DNA of 64,000 nt from positions 66,772 through 130,771 of the forward strand of contig CAZHIA010000005.1 in NCBI GenBank assembly GCA_964532425.1, in the 5' to 3' direction. Made by a program: the position numbers and the translations under genes. Positions 18,109-21,724 of this stretch are shown in pieces. The DNA is from an uncultured Candidatus Saccharibacteria bacterium (GTDB lineage Bacteria > Patescibacteriota > Doudnabacteria > UBA920). A model generated the notes under the pieces. The model did no database searches. It saw only the letters and a list, made by a program, of their open reading frames with translations, and was not told the origin of the DNA. Position 1 is the first letter of the stretch; every line of letters starts with the position of its first letter.

Positions 18109-18336
18109 TTACGTAATTTGAAGTTGCTGTTTAACTTTTTCCAGGTCGTTTTCTATTCTTCTTACCCATTCAATCGTAAATATCCGTTCCTGGTCAAGCC
18201 GCTTTAAGATAGCCATCGTTTCATCCTGATGTTTCAGATACTCCTCGCGAGTAATGAATCGTCCCATTTTTTCATCCAGACGGCCCATCTGTTCCTTAAT
18301 CTCGATAATGTGTTGAATTATTTTATCTTCGTTCAT
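18109..18336 (-). CDS. small coiled-coil hypothetical protein
   Basis: ATG at 18336 gives MNEDKIIQHIIEIKEQMGRLDEK.... The track start at 18387 is a TTG. No SD found. Confidence 0.35.
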   Translation of the reverse strand: MNEDKIIQHIIEIKEQMGRLDEKMGRFITREEYLKHQDETMAILKRLDQERIFTIEWVRRIENDLEKVKQQLQIT

Positions 18337-18451
18337 ATGCGTATATTTAGCTACCTCAATACTAGACGAAATAGGCAGGTGAGTCAAACAAAGGAATAAT
18401 ATTTATCTCGATAATTCCCATTAAAGAGATCCCCACCCCGCCTCACTATTG

Positions 18452-18478
18452 AAAAAAGCACCACCTAAAGGTGCTGCA
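18452..18478 (-). terminator. rho-independent terminator downstream of the tRNA cluster
   Basis: Minus-strand hairpin agcacc-tttagg-ggtgct followed by tttttt. Confidence 0.55.
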
Positions 18479-18486
18479 TTTTTCAA

Positions 18487-18563
18487 TGGCGGGGACGGCG
18501 GGGCTCGAACCCGTAACCTCTCGCGTGACAGGCGAGTGCTCTAACCAATTGAGCTACGCCCCC
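18487..18563 (-). tRNA. tRNA-Asp (GTC)
   Basis: GGGGGCGTAGCTCAATTGGTTAGAGCACTCGCCTGTCACGCGAGAGGTTACGGGTTCGAGCCCCGCCGTCCCCGCCA. Anticodon loop CTGTCAC, discriminator G73, encoded CCA. Confidence 0.9.
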
Positions 18564-18717
18564 GTATATTACGCTACTTTGGCCCTGAACCATTCCCCGC
18601 CTTCGGCAGATCAGGTACAAGGCATGAACCAGTCGCACAGCGTGCCGCCCACAAGAAACACTCACGAGCTTATGGCTGTGCCATGAACCGGAGCGAATCC
18701 GATGAGCGACTGGTTCA

Positions 18718-18794
18718 TGGTGCCGGAGAGAGGAATTGCACCTCTGACCTTGGGCTTATGAGTCCCACGCTCTAACTAACTGAGCTACTCCGGC
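18718..18794 (-). tRNA. tRNA-Met (CAT), elongator type. tRNA-Ile2 (lysidine) cannot be excluded.
   Basis: GCCGGAGTAGCTCAGTTAGTTAGAGCGTGGGACTCATAAGCCCAAGG...CTCCGGCACCA. Fully paired G1:C72. Anticodon loop CTCATAA. Confidence 0.85.
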
Positions 18795-19093: not shown

Positions 19094-19173
19094 GTGTTTG
19101 TTTTGATACTTAATATATAGACAAATCTACCAAACAGTGTTATTGTATGAGGTCAAATTTAAGGAGGACAGCG

Positions 19174-20268
19174 ATGAAAAAAGTACTTGTAACCGGCGGG
19201 CCGGTGCATGCGTATTTGGATGCGGTAAAGATTATTACCAATCGCTTCAAAGGCGGTCTTATCTGCGAGCTGGCGGAAAGTTTGTCCCAGATAGGGGCTG
19301 AAGTTACCTATCTCTGTGCGCCCAAAGTCGGGGCGCAGCTGCCACGAACCGATACGGGAATTAAAGTCATTACCCATAACGGGTTTTCTGACTACCACCA
19401 AAAAGTGCTCGAGCTGGCGCCCGGCATGAACAGTGTCATCTTGGGGGCTGCGGTGGCGAATCTGATTCCGGCAAACCCGTTGAAGGGCAAATTCCCAAGC
19501 CACAACTATAAACCCGGTGATCTCATTCCGATCGACTTCACGATCGCACCCCGGGTGATCGACGACATTAAGAAAGCCGCTCCGAACACCCATCTGTTCG
19601 GGTTCAAGCTTCTGTCAGGCGTCAGCCACGAAGAACTGATTCACGCCGCCTACGATATCGTGATCGACGCACACGCCACAGCGGTATTTGCCAACGATGC
19701 GATGCACTTGCAGCAGAAATATGCGGTAACCAAAGAACGCGGCGTGCATCCGCTCCAGCAACACGAACTCGCTTCATGGATATGGGAAGCGATCAATGAC
19801 ACGTACTACGCGACGGTCCTTGCGGGTGAAACCTCGGTTACCTATGGGGACGCAGGCCGCGTAAAAGCACTGATCAACCAGTACTCCGGGCGATTTACAG
19901 CCGTAGAAAACGGCCTCATCTTCGGCACGGTTGCAATGAGGAAAGGTTTCGGGTTTCTGACTACCGGGAGAGGAAAACGGGAGCTTGCTTCCGTTGTGTA
20001 TGTGGAGCAGGTAGACCACGCTACAAAGCAGGTACGCGTAGCCGGGACCGAGAAAGCATCACTCAACGCGCCTCTTCTCGCTACATTGTTCGAAAATCCG
20101 GCGGTGGACCGGATCGTCCATTATCATGAACAGGAACCTGACCTTCCCACGTACCCCTATGCCCCTCCGGGCACGGTTCGCGATAGCCGGCGGCCGAACA
20201 TCACCTCGTTCAATATTGCTGAGCATGGTTGCATGCTGCTGTTCGACAGGCAAGGGAGAAAACTGTAA
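19174..20268 (+). CDS. CoaB-like (phosphopantothenate--cysteine ligase / DFP-fold) protein fused to a roughly 150-aa C-terminal domain of unknown function
   Basis: SD aaggagga precedes the ATG at 19174. The N-terminal roughly 210 aa align with CoaB: VLVTGGPVHAYLDAVKIITNRFKGG..., GAAVANLIP, LFGFKLLSG, VFANDA. The C-terminal part (GFLTTGRGKRELASVVYVEQ...) is unrecognised. Confidence 0.65.
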   Translation: MKKVLVTGGPVHAYLDAVKIITNRFKGGLICELAESLSQIGAEVTYLCAPKVGAQLPRTDTGIKVITHNGFSDYHQKVLELAPGMNSVILGAAVANLIPANPLKGKFPSHNYKPGDLIPIDFTIAPRVIDDIKKAAPNTHLFGFKLLSGVSHEELIHAAYDIVIDAHATAVFANDAMHLQQKYAVTKERGVHPLQQHELASWIWEAINDTYYATVLAGETSVTYGDAGRVKALINQYSGRFTAVENGLIFGTVAMRKGFGFLTTGRGKRELASVVYVEQVDHATKQVRVAGTEKASLNAPLLATLFENPAVDRIVHYHEQEPDLPTYPYAPPGTVRDSRRPNITSFNIAEHGCMLLFDRQGRKL

Positions 20269-20924
20269 TGGCGCACTATCCTGATCACGAAACATACCGC
20301 GCCCTCTATCTTCGCTACATAAACGGACGCGATGTCGGCGAACTCCTATCGCTGTTACAGCCTCTGGAAGACACCCGCGTGCTCGATTTGTGCGGGGGCG
20401 GAGGCGGCTTGACCCTCGAAGCGATCAATTTAGGGGCTGGCACAGTCATACTTGCTGACGAAGAACCAAAAATGGTGCCGCATGGGTTTCTGGAACATCC
20501 CAAAGTGCATGTATACTTTGGTCCTGTTCGTATGACACTGGCGGACCTTATGGAAAAAGGCATTCAATTCGATCGTATTGCTTGCCGGCAGGCGGTCAAC
20601 TACTGGCTTAATGAATCCACGGCTGAAATGGTAGCCGAAGTCATGACACCAGGCGGTATTTTTGCCTTCAACACGTTCAATGTAAAGCCCTCTGAAATAC
20701 CCCGCGTATTGCAGTATGAATTGGAAAACCACACCTTCGTGGAAGTCAGCTGGCTCGTGGAAGATACGGTCCACCACCTGCAGGTGCGCGATGGATTAGA
20801 AGCCCATTCGACTTCGTTCCGATGGCTGTCACCGGAACGTTTCAGGGAGTTGCTCGATCCCTACTTTGCCGTTACCGAACACCGGCACGGAAAGACAAGT
20901 CTGTATCGCTGCATCAAGAAATAA
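20268..20924 (+). CDS. class I SAM-dependent methyltransferase
   Basis: Motif I VLDLCGGGGGLT. The start ATG overlaps the upstream stop (TAATG), indicating translational coupling. MTPGGIFAFN is motif IV-like. Confidence 0.8.
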   Translation: MAHYPDHETYRALYLRYINGRDVGELLSLLQPLEDTRVLDLCGGGGGLTLEAINLGAGTVILADEEPKMVPHGFLEHPKVHVYFGPVRMTLADLMEKGIQFDRIACRQAVNYWLNESTAEMVAEVMTPGGIFAFNTFNVKPSEIPRVLQYELENHTFVEVSWLVEDTVHHLQVRDGLEAHSTSFRWLSPERFRELLDPYFAVTEHRHGKTSLYRCIKK

Positions 20925-20930
20925 GATGCC

Positions 20931-20963
20931 CAGCGCGACTCAAAAAGTTGCGCTGTTTTATTT
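20931..20963 (+). terminator. rho-independent terminator (plus strand)
   Basis: cagcgc-gactcaaaaagtt-gcgctg followed by ttttatttt. Confidence 0.6.
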
Positions 20964-21004: not shown

Positions 21005-21643
21005 TCACCCGATGCGGCGAAAGATAAGCTCCCTGCCGATCTTGGCGAGAAAAGCTGCATCGTAGTCAGCGCCGTGCGCGATGCGGCGGTCATCGAGGAT
21101 ACCAAGCCGTTTAAGACTGCTGTCCATACACTTGTCGTATCCACGGTACAGCGAATCCAGATCAATACCACCCCATCCGTATGGCAGCGGCGACCCGGCC
21201 AAGCAATTGCAATAATAACTGATCTGGCCGGCATCAAAGAAGACCGTGTCCGTCACGCCGATAACTTCCTCATACCCCATACACTGCGTGCCGACCCACT
21301 CGATGAATTGCTCCATACCAGCTTTAGGATCTTCCCCTACATCATTCAGAAGCTCCAGAATCCTGTACGGTTCGAACTCGGGACTGGTTGGATCATACCG
21401 CGAATCCCCAGTGAGGCCGTTTTTCGCGATGCAGTGCAGTCCCAGACAGCCAATGCGCATGGCCGACTCCGTGAACTCCCGGGAAATCGGCTTGAACTCA
21501 GCGTAAAATAACCGACCTCGTCGCACCAGTTCGTCAAATGGAAATTCGTGCGGCAGAATGACACAGGCTCCAAGCGAAAGCATGCTATGGACTCCGAGCA
21601 GCGGCCCGGCCGTTTCCACATCGTTAGCTATATACAGTTTCAT
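21005..21643 (-). CDS. DEDDh-family 3'-5' exonuclease (DnaQ/RNase T-like)
   Basis: SD aggagg precedes the ATG at 21643. Exo I is MKLYIANDVETAG. Exo III is HGADYDAAFLAKI. Confidence 0.7.
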   Translation of the reverse strand: MKLYIANDVETAGPLLGVHSMLSLGACVILPHEFPFDELVRRGRLFYAEFKPISREFTESAMRIGCLGLHCIAKNGLTGDSRYDPTSPEFEPYRILELLNDVGEDPKAGMEQFIEWVGTQCMGYEEVIGVTDTVFFDAGQISYYCNCLAGSPLPYGWGGIDLDSLYRGYDKCMDSSLKRLGILDDRRIAHGADYDAAFLAKIGRELIFRRIG

Positions 21644-21724
21644 TGTTCCTCCTAAGATCAAATTAGTATAAAAAAGCGGGGTTGCCTTGTCAAACACACC
21701 TCCCCCTATGATATACTGACCCAT

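Follow-up and report, generated by a model that had tools for sequence, protein, structure and literature searches.

Two overlapping genes, 1.75 kb in all, encode three domains that co-occur wherever the contig permits a check: a CoaB-like domain (CoaB') which, judged from its sequence, is a diverged member of the phosphopantothenate-cysteine ligase (PPCS) fold and not a canonical PPCS, CoaB or CoaBC; a second domain (X) predicted to have a class II aldolase/adducin fold in divergent form and bearing a three-histidine (His3) signature of a metal site; and a class I SAM methyltransferase (MTase). More than 150 loci conserve the pair, whose carriers are CPR bacteria, DPANN archaea, huge phages and about 30 species of low-GC gut Firmicutes. 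We found no literature on this CoaB'-X-MTase family.

Organisation and distribution of the operon

The stretch of DNA analysed (the window) is 64 kb long and comes from a CPR bacterium. ORF A (19174..20268, forward strand, stop codon included) encodes a fusion protein of 364 aa, in which residues 1-190 (19174..19743) form the CoaB' domain and residues 191-364 (19744..20265) form X. ORF B (20268..20924, same strand) encodes the MTase, of 218 aa. The open frame of ORF A spans 19147..20268 but the true start codon is that at 19174 (MKKVLVTGG), as initially annotated: a Shine-Dalgarno sequence read in the DNA, AAGGAGG (19160..19166), lies about 8 nt upstream, and homologs share the MKK(I/V)L start. 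The junction between the two genes reads CTG TAA TGG, where TAA occupies 20266-20268 and ATG 20268-20270. This 1-nt overlap (TAATG) bears out the translational coupling to a class I SAM MTase proposed in the initial annotation. A promoter-like site (TAGACA-17-TATTGT with a TG extension, 19118..19146) lies upstream of ORF A, although the consensus scan returned three sites against 1.8 expected and the site is therefore weak evidence. A terminator-like hairpin with a 10-bp stem and a T-run (20931..20955) is found directly 3' of ORF B. With promoter-like site, overlap and terminator, ORF A and ORF B constitute a self-contained bicistronic operon. Three tRNA genes abut it and a CCA-adding enzyme is encoded 2 kb away. 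A tblastn analysis of the window found no homolog of CoaC, CoaD or CoaE, in agreement with the earlier remark that coaC is absent nearby.

The ORF A family includes 704 homologs. An MTase gene is adjacent in 46 of 49 species genomes, in all 25 viral contigs and in 66 of 80 metagenome loci. All 14 metagenome loci without the MTase stop at a contig edge or gap, as do two of the genome loci that lack it; the remaining one is a decayed remnant. Clearly, the association of ORF A with ORF B is far beyond chance, and the question of whether the ligase-MTase pair is conserved in relatives can be answered: it is kept wherever this can be checked. The domains are also joined in different ways. CoaB'-X is the common fusion form, X is fused to the MTase in two loci (L024 and L030), where a separate canonical CoaB lies alongside, and all three domains form a single protein in another (L078). 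No other fusion partner was found among homologs of unusual length. Since the three domains travel together across lineages and occur in three different fusion combinations, we consider that they act as one unit.

Features of the three domains

The Pfam DFP/CoaB domain (PF04127) matches residues 2-183 of ORF A (E 8e-20; 71.8 bits, cut-off 22), and the four motifs on which the CoaB-like assignment was originally based are all present (VLVTGGPVHAYLDAVKIITNRFKGG at residues 4-28, GAAVANLIP at 91-99, LFGFKLLSG at 141-149 and VFANDA at 171-176). The AlphaFold2 (AF2) model of ORF A has a mean pLDDT of 91 and a pTM of 0.86. A Foldseek search with the CoaB' part retrieved 2gk4 and the M. smegmatis and E. 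coli CoaB structures at E 1e-13 to 1e-15; the best 50 matches were CoaB/PPCS throughout, with a TM to target of 0.75-0.8 against such structures. In contrast, ORF A fails the three equivalog cut-offs by a wide margin: 75.1 bits against 265 for NF005231, 63.9 against 217.2 for TIGR02114 and 57.6 against 219.7 for TIGR00521.

Mutagenesis by Kupke is reportedly a second source of the residue roles in CoaB. The roles used here were assigned after PMC12985681. The catalytic Asn, strictly conserved in PPCS (Ec N210, Hs N59; PMC12985681), corresponds to N23, which is invariant in 46 of 46 family sequences. By motif alignment, the P-Pan-binding Ala-Ala (Ec A275/A276, Hs A179/A180) appears to be kept as A92/A93 and the P-Pan-binding Arg (Ec R206, Hs R55) is replaced by Lys (K19). 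The flap Lys (Ec K289, in K-x-K-K) corresponds to K106, within G-K-F-P-S-H; streptococcal-type CoaB carries K-I-S-S at this position. The nucleotide-binding side is different. ORF A does not match PPCS motif I (G-G-T-x-E-x-[IL]-D-x-V-R-x-I-x-N-x-S-S-G) but reads G-G-P-V-H-A-Y-L-D-A-V-K-I-I-T-N-R-F-K-G-G, so that SSGK becomes FKGG; across the family the triplet x-S-S of PPCS is x-F-[KR], and F-[KR]-G stands in place of the SSG nucleotide motif. Moreover, the strictly conserved Asp through which PPCS holds a divalent metal at the triphosphate of the NTP (Ec D279, Msm D281, Hs D183; PMC7794376, PMC12985681) is replaced by N96 in ORF A, and by Asn in all 163 full-length homologs. Because this metal ligand is invariantly Asn, ligase activity of CoaB' is uncertain. 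With its Mg-triphosphate site remodelled in this way (Asp to Asn, SSG to F-K-G), CoaB' would be expected to use nucleotides differently from true CoaB. The designation 'CMP-activating ligase' given in the initial annotation is thus not secure (PMC7794376, PMC12985681).

The C-terminal domain had been described as belonging to no recognisable family. This holds for Pfam, where residues 190-364 give no match even at E<=10. The X family profile likewise gave no match against the PDB, PHROGs and PADLOC searches did not identify the domain, and hhalign against FucA was weak (E 0.05). A single homolog (P0107) carries a precomputed PF00596 match. The description does not hold at the level of structure: the AF2 model of X (pLDDT 91) matches FucA (1e49) in Foldseek at E 3.5e-7 with probability 1.0, and the best 40 PDB matches belong to the class II aldolase family throughout. 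The fold was identified through structure prediction and Foldseek only, sequence methods having failed. In the hhalign alignment, H316-x-H318 is in register with H92 and H94 of FucA, while H351-G is matched to FucA H155-G by spacing only; the HxH...HG pattern is kept in 256 of 267 homologs. A K294-A-S-L-N298-A-P-L-L motif is invariant in X, as are R266, K268 and R340. The general base of FucA, Glu73, is absent, its place being taken by Asn298 (gapless alignment from HxH) or Ala303 (hhalign). A divergent CoaC (PF02441, HFCD flavoprotein) had been considered as the identity of this domain and is rejected in view of the class II aldolase fold; in the split operons described below, true CoaC (PF02441, E 3e-35) is encoded by a separate gene.

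ORF B appears from its sequence to be a dedicated, small-molecule-type class I SAM MTase. It carries motif I (VLDLCGGGG) and an acidic residue after beta-2 (in ILADEE), and matches Pfam Methyltransf_25 at E 1.9e-5 (25.7 bits, slightly short of the cut-off of 27). Its homologs carry precomputed MTase family matches, and its family profile matches small-molecule MTases in the PDB (among them ToxA, UbiG and PMT; E 2e-10). The BioC model gives E 2e-3, far under its cut-off.

Gene neighbourhoods and possible functions

In about 30 low-GC gut Firmicutes species the system is split, with an operon in the order coaC-coaB-X-MTase-aminotransferase and overlapping stops and starts. The aminotransferase gene is MocR/PdxR-like, with a PLP aminotransferase fold. 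Here coaB is separate and canonical (SSGK, Asp, K-I-S-S) and passes the TIGR02114 cut-off (for example, 218.1 bits against 217.2 in L016), and coaC passes that of TIGR00521. The gene order is rearranged in one locus (L051), where clustering is kept. Genetic code 4 was considered as a cause of the split ORFs and rejected, the genes being truly separate. The Firmicutes operon may amount to a single evolutionary observation. No riboswitch or T-box leader naming a metabolite was found in the window or in 15 split loci.

A true CoaD homolog lies directly downstream of the system in a CPR locus (L008) and on a 536-kb viral contig (L074); of 45 viral contigs that carry CoaD, one has the pair, a weak linkage for phages. 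CoaC was not detected in the vicinity of any fused locus; coaC, coaD and coaE are absent from all 80 metagenome loci; and no partner gene recurs in CPR loci. The genes that recur beside the pair in phages belong to NAD salvage and RNA repair and not to CoA metabolism. NAPRTase, NAD synthase (NadE) and an isochorismatase/nicotinamidase-like gene occur 1-7 kb from the pair in 11 or more of the 25 viral loci, representing two GC-distinct phage lineages. NAPRTase is found in 18 and NadE in 15 of the 80 metagenome loci, and NAD genes are also present in L004. No NadD was seen in the phage NAD islands, and the CPR, DPANN and Firmicutes loci have no NAD genes in the vicinity of the pair. The RNA-related neighbours include RtcB, RNA ligase, Tpt1/KptA, RlaP and a macro domain, and the islands with NAD genes also hold RtcB, Tpt1, macro domain, Ham1 and Maf.

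The explanation that we tentatively favour, as possible rather than probable, is a small-molecule ligation or tailoring step of the CoA branch. A link with CoA is proposed because of the homology of CoaB', the Firmicutes coaC-coaB operon and the CoaD genes beside the system in the CPR locus and the viral contig. The substrate would be a small phospho-carboxylate of this branch, 4'-phosphopantothenate or a close analogue. CoaB' would bind the carboxylate and probably activate it or couple it with a partner amine or thiol, for example cysteine; in X, the putative His3 metal site, ringed by invariant Arg and Lys residues, would hold and transform the partner or the product end; and the MTase would methylate the product, so that a modified precursor of CoA or an intermediate for salvage might result. 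Counting against this are the doubtful ligase activity, the absence of CoA genes from the window and of coaC, coaD and coaE from the metagenome loci, the lack of recurrent partners in CPR loci, the rarity of the pair among CoaD-carrying viral contigs, the NAD and RNA character of the recurrent phage neighbours and the Firmicutes operon's possible status as a single observation. Moreover, we know of no CoA-pathway step that requires a methyl transfer. It had been suggested that the system is distinct from CoA biosynthesis. It is indeed not ordinary CoA biosynthesis, but this wording is too strong given that X and the MTase stand beside canonical coaC-coaB in Firmicutes. It is unlikely that the trio represents a previously unrecognised cofactor pathway common to host-dependent microbes and huge phages. 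Such a pathway could be a flavin-independent or SAM-driven (methyl-ester-activated, NTP-independent) conversion of 4'-phosphopantothenate to a pantetheine-type product, or could provide a methylated analogue of a CoA or NAD precursor.

Retention of the catalytic Asn and, apparently, of the P-Pan-site residues, the lack of CoaC near fused loci, the two downstream CoaD genes and an architecture that parallels CoaBC would also suit a flavin-independent analogue of CoaBC, in which CoaB' would function as a PPCS and produce phosphopantothenoylcysteine, X would stand in for CoaC in coaC-less organisms to give 4'-phosphopantetheine for CoaD and CoaE, and the MTase would be accessory. The class II aldolase superfamily does have decarboxylases among its members (OtnC). 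We nevertheless regard this as quite improbable. The metal-ligand Asp is replaced throughout the homologs, the NCBIfam CoaB scores (58-75 bits) are far from their cut-offs (217-265), the obligate MTase is left without a role, and non-oxidative decarboxylation of an N-acyl-cysteine by a Lewis-acid metal would seem to lack chemical precedent. Since the Firmicutes operon holds both true CoaC and X, X is no simple substitute for CoaC. The loss of the conserved Asp and a remodelled motif I, with ligand-site residues apparently kept, would fit a CoaB' that is a non-catalytic pseudoenzyme, offering a molecule that contains pantothenate or a nucleotide to an active site made up jointly by X and the MTase (for example, for metal-activated thiol or carboxyl methylation, possibly in metabolite repair or damage control). 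There are precedents in the PANK4 pseudo-kinase with its DUF89 damage-control phosphatase and in Zn-activated thiol methyltransferases, and the X-MTase fusions that stand without CoaB' beside a canonical CoaB point in the same direction. However, the equivalents of the catalytic Asn and Lys (N23 and K106) are invariant, which would be unexpected in a dead enzyme, and Mg2+ ligation is still possible with Asn. This reading, too, is unlikely despite the loss of a strictly conserved Asp (PMC12985681, PMC7794376).

The phage neighbourhoods suggest two further roles. The NAD genes of the viral and metagenome loci, in islands without NadD, would be consistent with an enzyme of the NAD branch that acts on NaMN, NaAD or nicotinate to make or modify a pyridine nucleotide during phage NAD+ salvage or reconstitution; NaMN would resemble P-Pan in carrying its phosphate and its carboxylate at opposite ends. 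This is distinctly doubtful: the residues that CoaB' appears to retain are ones with an assigned role in binding P-Pan, the pair's homologs in Firmicutes lie beside coaC-coaB, NAD genes are missing from the surroundings of the pair in CPR, DPANN and Firmicutes loci, and phage auxiliary-metabolism islands may co-locate genes non-specifically, as the RtcB, Tpt1, macro domain, Ham1 and Maf genes illustrate. The RNA-repair neighbours, together with the tRNA genes and CCA-adding enzyme beside the window operon, could instead indicate RNA (tRNA) repair or modification, in which a group would be added to an RNA end or base and then methylated by analogy with Pnkp/Hen1. The CPR, DPANN and huge-phage carriers are also enriched in accessory genes connected with translation. 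This role is nonetheless very improbable, as no homolog has a fused RNA-binding domain, the MTase profile resembles small-molecule MTases, CPR neighbourhoods are random and the Firmicutes operon, with its coaC-coaB and aminotransferase genes, suggests small-molecule metabolism.

Significance and comparison with known systems

Cofactor biosynthesis is generally considered absent from CPR bacteria and DPANN archaea. The trio is a tightly conserved and readily expressed candidate for a missing or alternative cofactor step, for instance in securing CoA or NAD, in these organisms and in huge phages, encoded by only two genes, and reduced gut Firmicutes share its X and MTase, wired into coaC-coaB. 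If the cofactor-pathway reading were true, CPR, DPANN and huge phages would make or salvage an essential cofactor by non-textbook chemistry. Whatever the function, a PPCS-fold domain in which a supposedly universal metal-ligand Asp is systematically replaced is of enzymological interest.

A SAM MTase is tied to an amide or carboxylate step in the methyl-ester-activated amide formation of CapS/CapW (capuramycin) and in carboxyl methylation by BioC. The homology seen between ORF B and these is limited to the generic class I MTase fold and the resemblance serves as a lead only. X shares its fold, as well as G-x-V-x-x-R and Y-A-x-x-G-T motifs, with the class II aldolase/adducin family (PF00596: FucA, AraD, MtnB/APIP, DrdA, pyruvic oxime dioxygenase). 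It differs in being shorter (about 175 aa compared with 206-215), in a TM of about 0.5, in the additional invariant R266, K268, K294 and R340 and in its linkage, wherever checkable, to a CoaB-type domain and an MTase.

In streptococcal-type coaC-coaB operons of about 30 Firmicutes species, homologs of X and the MTase come directly after canonical coaC and coaB. These operons have an added MocR/PdxR-like gene and a separate canonical CoaB, whereas the window contains the fused, non-canonical form with no nearby coaC. The closest comparison is with CoaB/CoaBC (Dfp, EC 6.3.2.5; closest structures 2gk4 from S. pneumoniae and those of M. smegmatis and E. coli), which has the same DFP Rossmann-like fold and has in common with CoaB' the catalytic Asn and, as far as the motif alignment indicates, the P-Pan-site Arg (as Lys), the Ala-Ala and the K289-equivalent Lys. 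CoaBC and ORF A are also alike in joining a ligase domain to a second, catalytic-looking domain in one chain. However, CoaB and CoaB' are only 22-25% identical, T-x-E...SSG(K) of CoaB motif I is V-H-A...F-K-G-G in ORF A, the partner domain is the HFCD flavoprotein CoaC in one case and a predicted class II aldolase fold in the other, and only the ORF A system has an obligate SAM MTase partner.

Operon structure and surroundings

Two co-directional ORFs are present in this region in the ORF listing of the window. ORF A, in which a CoaB-like domain (CoaB') is fused to a second domain (X), is listed as 19147-20268 and includes an internal start at 19174, which reads MKKVLVTGG. Because AAGGAGG lies approximately 8 nt 5' of this ATG and the N-termini of 45 aligned homologs agree with it, we define ORF A as 19174-20268 (364 aa). 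This is also the start chosen in the initial annotation, and all four (4/4) of the motifs quoted there are found in ORF A. ORF B (20268-20924, 218 aa), the methyltransferase (MTase) gene, is read in the same direction. The previously noted stop/start overlap is confirmed: the last A of the ORF A TAA (20266-20268) is the first base of the ORF B ATG, with a single shared A at 20268 (junction ...CTGTAATGG...). Given this overlap, a promoter-like site upstream of ORF A (19118-19146) and a 10-bp hairpin with a T-run directly 3' of ORF B (20931-20955), the unit can be considered a self-contained bicistronic operon.

The operon is flanked on one side by three minus-strand tRNA genes (Asp, Met, Met) and on the other by a convergent gene (21005-21724, minus strand, 239 aa). 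The latter has no Pfam match; its product hits the PADLOC 'Effector / Exonuclease' model (E 6e-23) and shows a faint similarity to DnaQ, and the gene is followed by a terminator-like hairpin (20995-20971). The 154-nt spacer between tRNA-Met (18718-18794) and tRNA-Asp (18487-18563) (18564-18717, minus strand) folds at -69.8 kcal/mol (z = -4.97 compared with shuffled sequences) and includes a 20-nt inverted repeat (90% complementary). It has no Rfam match and could be a processing element or a novel structured RNA. A 35-nt imperfect inverted repeat (18432-18503; 74% complementary, 2-nt loop) lies between a 92-aa ORF (18109-18387, minus strand) and the tRNA-Asp 3' end, which it overlaps, and may be a bidirectional terminator. 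No riboswitch or T-box pointing to a metabolite was found, either in the window or at 15 loci with the split gene arrangement described below. In line with the initial statement, no CoaC, CoaD or CoaE homologs were found in the 64-kb window.

The three domains

ORF A residues 2-183 match the CoaB domain of Dfp (Pfam PF04127, E 8e-20). A PDB structure search with the AlphaFold2 model of ORF A (46 homologs, pLDDT 91, pTM 0.86) gives top matches exclusively to CoaB, that is, phosphopantothenoylcysteine synthetase (PPCS), with E values of 1e-15 to 1e-10 (2gk4 and the M. smegmatis, E. coli, yeast and human enzymes). The domain had therefore been correctly recognized as CoaB-like. It nevertheless misses the NCBIfam equivalog cut-offs widely (58-75 bits versus 217-265). 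We aligned the fused N-domains with the canonical CoaBs from this study and E. coli CoaB, and set them against published roles. The catalytic Asn (E. coli N210, human N59) is kept as N23. The Ala-Ala of the 4'-phosphopantothenate (P-Pan) site (A92/A93) and the K289-equivalent Lys (K106) also appear to be kept, and the P-Pan-site Arg appears to be changed to Lys (K19). The metal-ligand Asp (E. coli D279, M. smegmatis D281, human D183) is replaced by N96, and this position is Asn in 163/163 full-length homologs. In motif I, x-S-S-G is replaced by x-F-[KR]-G and T-x-E is lost. M. smegmatis D281 coordinates a divalent cation together with triphosphate (PMC7794376), and the PPCS Asn and Asp have been described as strictly conserved throughout the PPCS classes (PMC12985681). 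With its Asp to Asn and motif I changes, CoaB' therefore belongs to a separate paralogous subfamily whose Mg-NTP site has been remodelled. Its inclusion in CoaB as an enzyme is not supported; it is still plausible that it works like CoaB in binding a P-Pan-like phospho-carboxylate.

Genes carrying only a CoaB-like N-domain occur in two 735-kb uncultured phages (LR756501.1 and LR756503.1, 218582-219133) and in Methanothermobacter phage psiM100 (633-1226). Their similarity (25-27% identity, residues 3-180/203) does not continue into X, and phage CoaB-fold genes may be more varied than the ORF A family.

X (residues 190-364) was described initially as having no recognizable family, and this holds for Pfam, PHROG, PADLOC and PDB-profile searches. 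When X is modelled by itself (pLDDT 91), its best 40 PDB matches (40/40) all have the class II aldolase/adducin fold, for example FucA (E 3.5e-7), AraD, DrdA, MtnB/APIP and pyruvic oxime dioxygenase. The hhalign match to FucA is weak yet in register: GTVAMR, VHYHEQ and YAPPGT of X correspond to GNVSVR, VHNHAV (containing H92 and H94) and YATFGT of FucA. The third His (H351-G) is at the place expected for FucA H155-G. The FucA base Glu73 is not retained in X. The FucA sequence used reproduces the published residue numbering. From the structural matches and in-register motifs we infer that X is a divergent class II aldolase-fold domain. The suggestion that it might be a divergent CoaC is ruled out by this predicted fold. 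The invariant R266, K268, K294 and R340 of X point to an anionic ligand. When X was searched against 1.84 billion representative proteins, 262 clusters were found; most of the 150 best hits have the same fused architecture, and the shorter ones resemble fragments.

ORF B is a class I SAM MTase (motif VLDLCGGGGG). Its family profile matches small-molecule MTases in PDB (E 2e-10), and CRQAVNYW, FNTF and HHLQV are among the invariant motifs specific to the family.

Conservation and gene neighbourhoods

The initial annotation had asked whether the pair (the ORF A family gene and its MTase gene) is conserved, and it clearly is. In four of four divergent large contigs an MTase homolog directly follows the fusion gene (40% identity to ORF B in the most divergent) while the remaining flanks are unrelated. 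Among GTDB species genomes, 44/49 loci have a BLAST-detectable adjacent MTase and two (L013, L015) a divergent one of the same family; L052 and L053 are cut off by a gap or a contig edge, and L046 (136-537, a Eubacteriales MAG) is a decayed X copy truncated before the H-G motif, with no MTase downstream. The MTase is present in 25/25 IMG/VR viral loci (23 by BLAST, one divergent form, L070, and one fusion, L078) and in 66/80 metagenome loci, the remaining 14/14 stopping at the contig end. CoaB'-X is the commonest fusion. X-MTase occurs as a single ORF of approximately 440 aa in Clostridia MAGs (L024, 5719-7047; L030, 5657-6976) and CoaB'-X-MTase as one of 540 aa in a viral contig (L078, 7992-9614). 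No further fused domains were found in homologs of odd length. CoaB', X and the MTase thus form one functional unit.

The form is always fused in CPR (including Kaiserbacteria, Harrisonbacteria, Paceibacter and Yanofskybacteria) and DPANN (including Micrarchaeota and Woesearchaeota), with no recurrent neighbour family around these loci. At L001 (10670-12574), a GmrSD type IV, modified-DNA-specific restriction enzyme and a flagellin gene lie less than 5 kb from the pair, an anecdotal case; its protein P0112 is additionally listed for a 1.2-Mb contig.

A split form occurs in about 30-35 MAGs of low-GC (22-34%) gut Bacilli, Clostridia and Erysipelotrichaceae: a divergent LysR gene, then coaC, coaB, X, MTase and an aminotransferase-fold gene, joined by stop/start overlaps (for example, L016, 4433-7927; similar across L016-L050). 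This operon appears undescribed. Its coaB and coaC pass their cut-offs (218.1 versus 217.2, TIGR02114; 228.9 versus 219.7, TIGR00521), and the product of the fifth gene is similar to the PLP domain found in MocR/PdxR regulators. In L049 and L051 coaB, X, MTase and the aminotransferase-fold gene are still clustered, in a different order in L051. In Firmicutes, the N-terminus of X corresponds to the final helix-strand-strand-helix of CoaB', which would fit docking of X onto CoaB.

Among the 25 viral contigs, lengths of 180-550 kb are frequent, and LR745208.1, a curated 485-kb huge-phage genome, encodes the fusion (52.7% identity). In at least two GC-distinct phage lineages, NAPRTase, NAD synthase and isochorismatase-like (nicotinamidase-like) genes lie 1-7 kb from the pair (L055, L064-L068, L071, L072, L077; also L004 and many of L094-L158), and macro-domain, RNA-ligase, RtcB, Tpt1/KptA and RlaP genes are also found near it. 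Among the recurrent neighbours in these islands, we noticed no NadD homolog. The L004 RtcB carries an intein. CoaD, judged genuine (37-40% identity to E. coli CoaD), is directly 3' of the pair in a CPR genome (L008, 6751-7977) and in a 536-kb viral contig (L074, 9329-9892). This linkage is rare (0/80 metagenome loci; the pair is in 1/45 CoaD-bearing viral contigs). The L008 ORF extends approximately 240 aa past CoaD, HD-like by eye, and L074 also has PheRS-alpha-like and HD/RelA-SpoT-like genes.

Possible functions and relation to known systems

These results establish a conserved system in which a PPCS-fold domain and a putative metal domain with the predicted class II aldolase fold are combined with a SAM MTase, and which differs from canonical CoaB and CoaBC. 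Our tentative reading, possible if somewhat short of probable, is a set of enzymes acting on a small molecule of the CoA branch by a three-step mechanism. It is based on CoaB' homology with retained P-Pan-site residues, the presence of canonical coaC and coaB in the Firmicutes operon, and the two independent coaD adjacencies. CoaB' would bind, and possibly activate or couple, a P-Pan-like carboxylate; the putative His3 metal site of X, with Arg/Lys around it, would hold the partner or product end; and the MTase would methylate the product.

A flavin-free CoaBC analogue feeding CoaD is improbable: the Asp to Asn change and the occurrence of CoaC alongside X in Firmicutes speak against it, and it leaves the MTase unexplained. 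An NAD-branch reaction on NaMN-like substrates, for which the phage context is the sole support, is equally improbable. The phage RNA-repair islands and the tRNA genes adjacent to the operon would also fit RNA repair or modification; with an MTase of small-molecule type and no RNA-binding domain, we consider this very improbable. It is quite unlikely that CoaB' is a pseudoenzyme that presents a ligand to a composite site formed by X and the MTase, perhaps in metabolite repair.

We found no paper on the CoaB'-X-MTase family. Its homologs are named 'hypothetical protein', 'DNA/pantothenate metabolism flavoprotein C-terminal domain-containing protein' or, wrongly, 'phosphopantothenate-cysteine ligase'. 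That it represents an unrecognized cofactor pathway is unlikely. Its individual folds are already known. What is new is the architecture, the consistent loss of the metal-ligand Asp of PPCS, and a range that takes in CPR and DPANN as well as huge phages and reduced gut Firmicutes.
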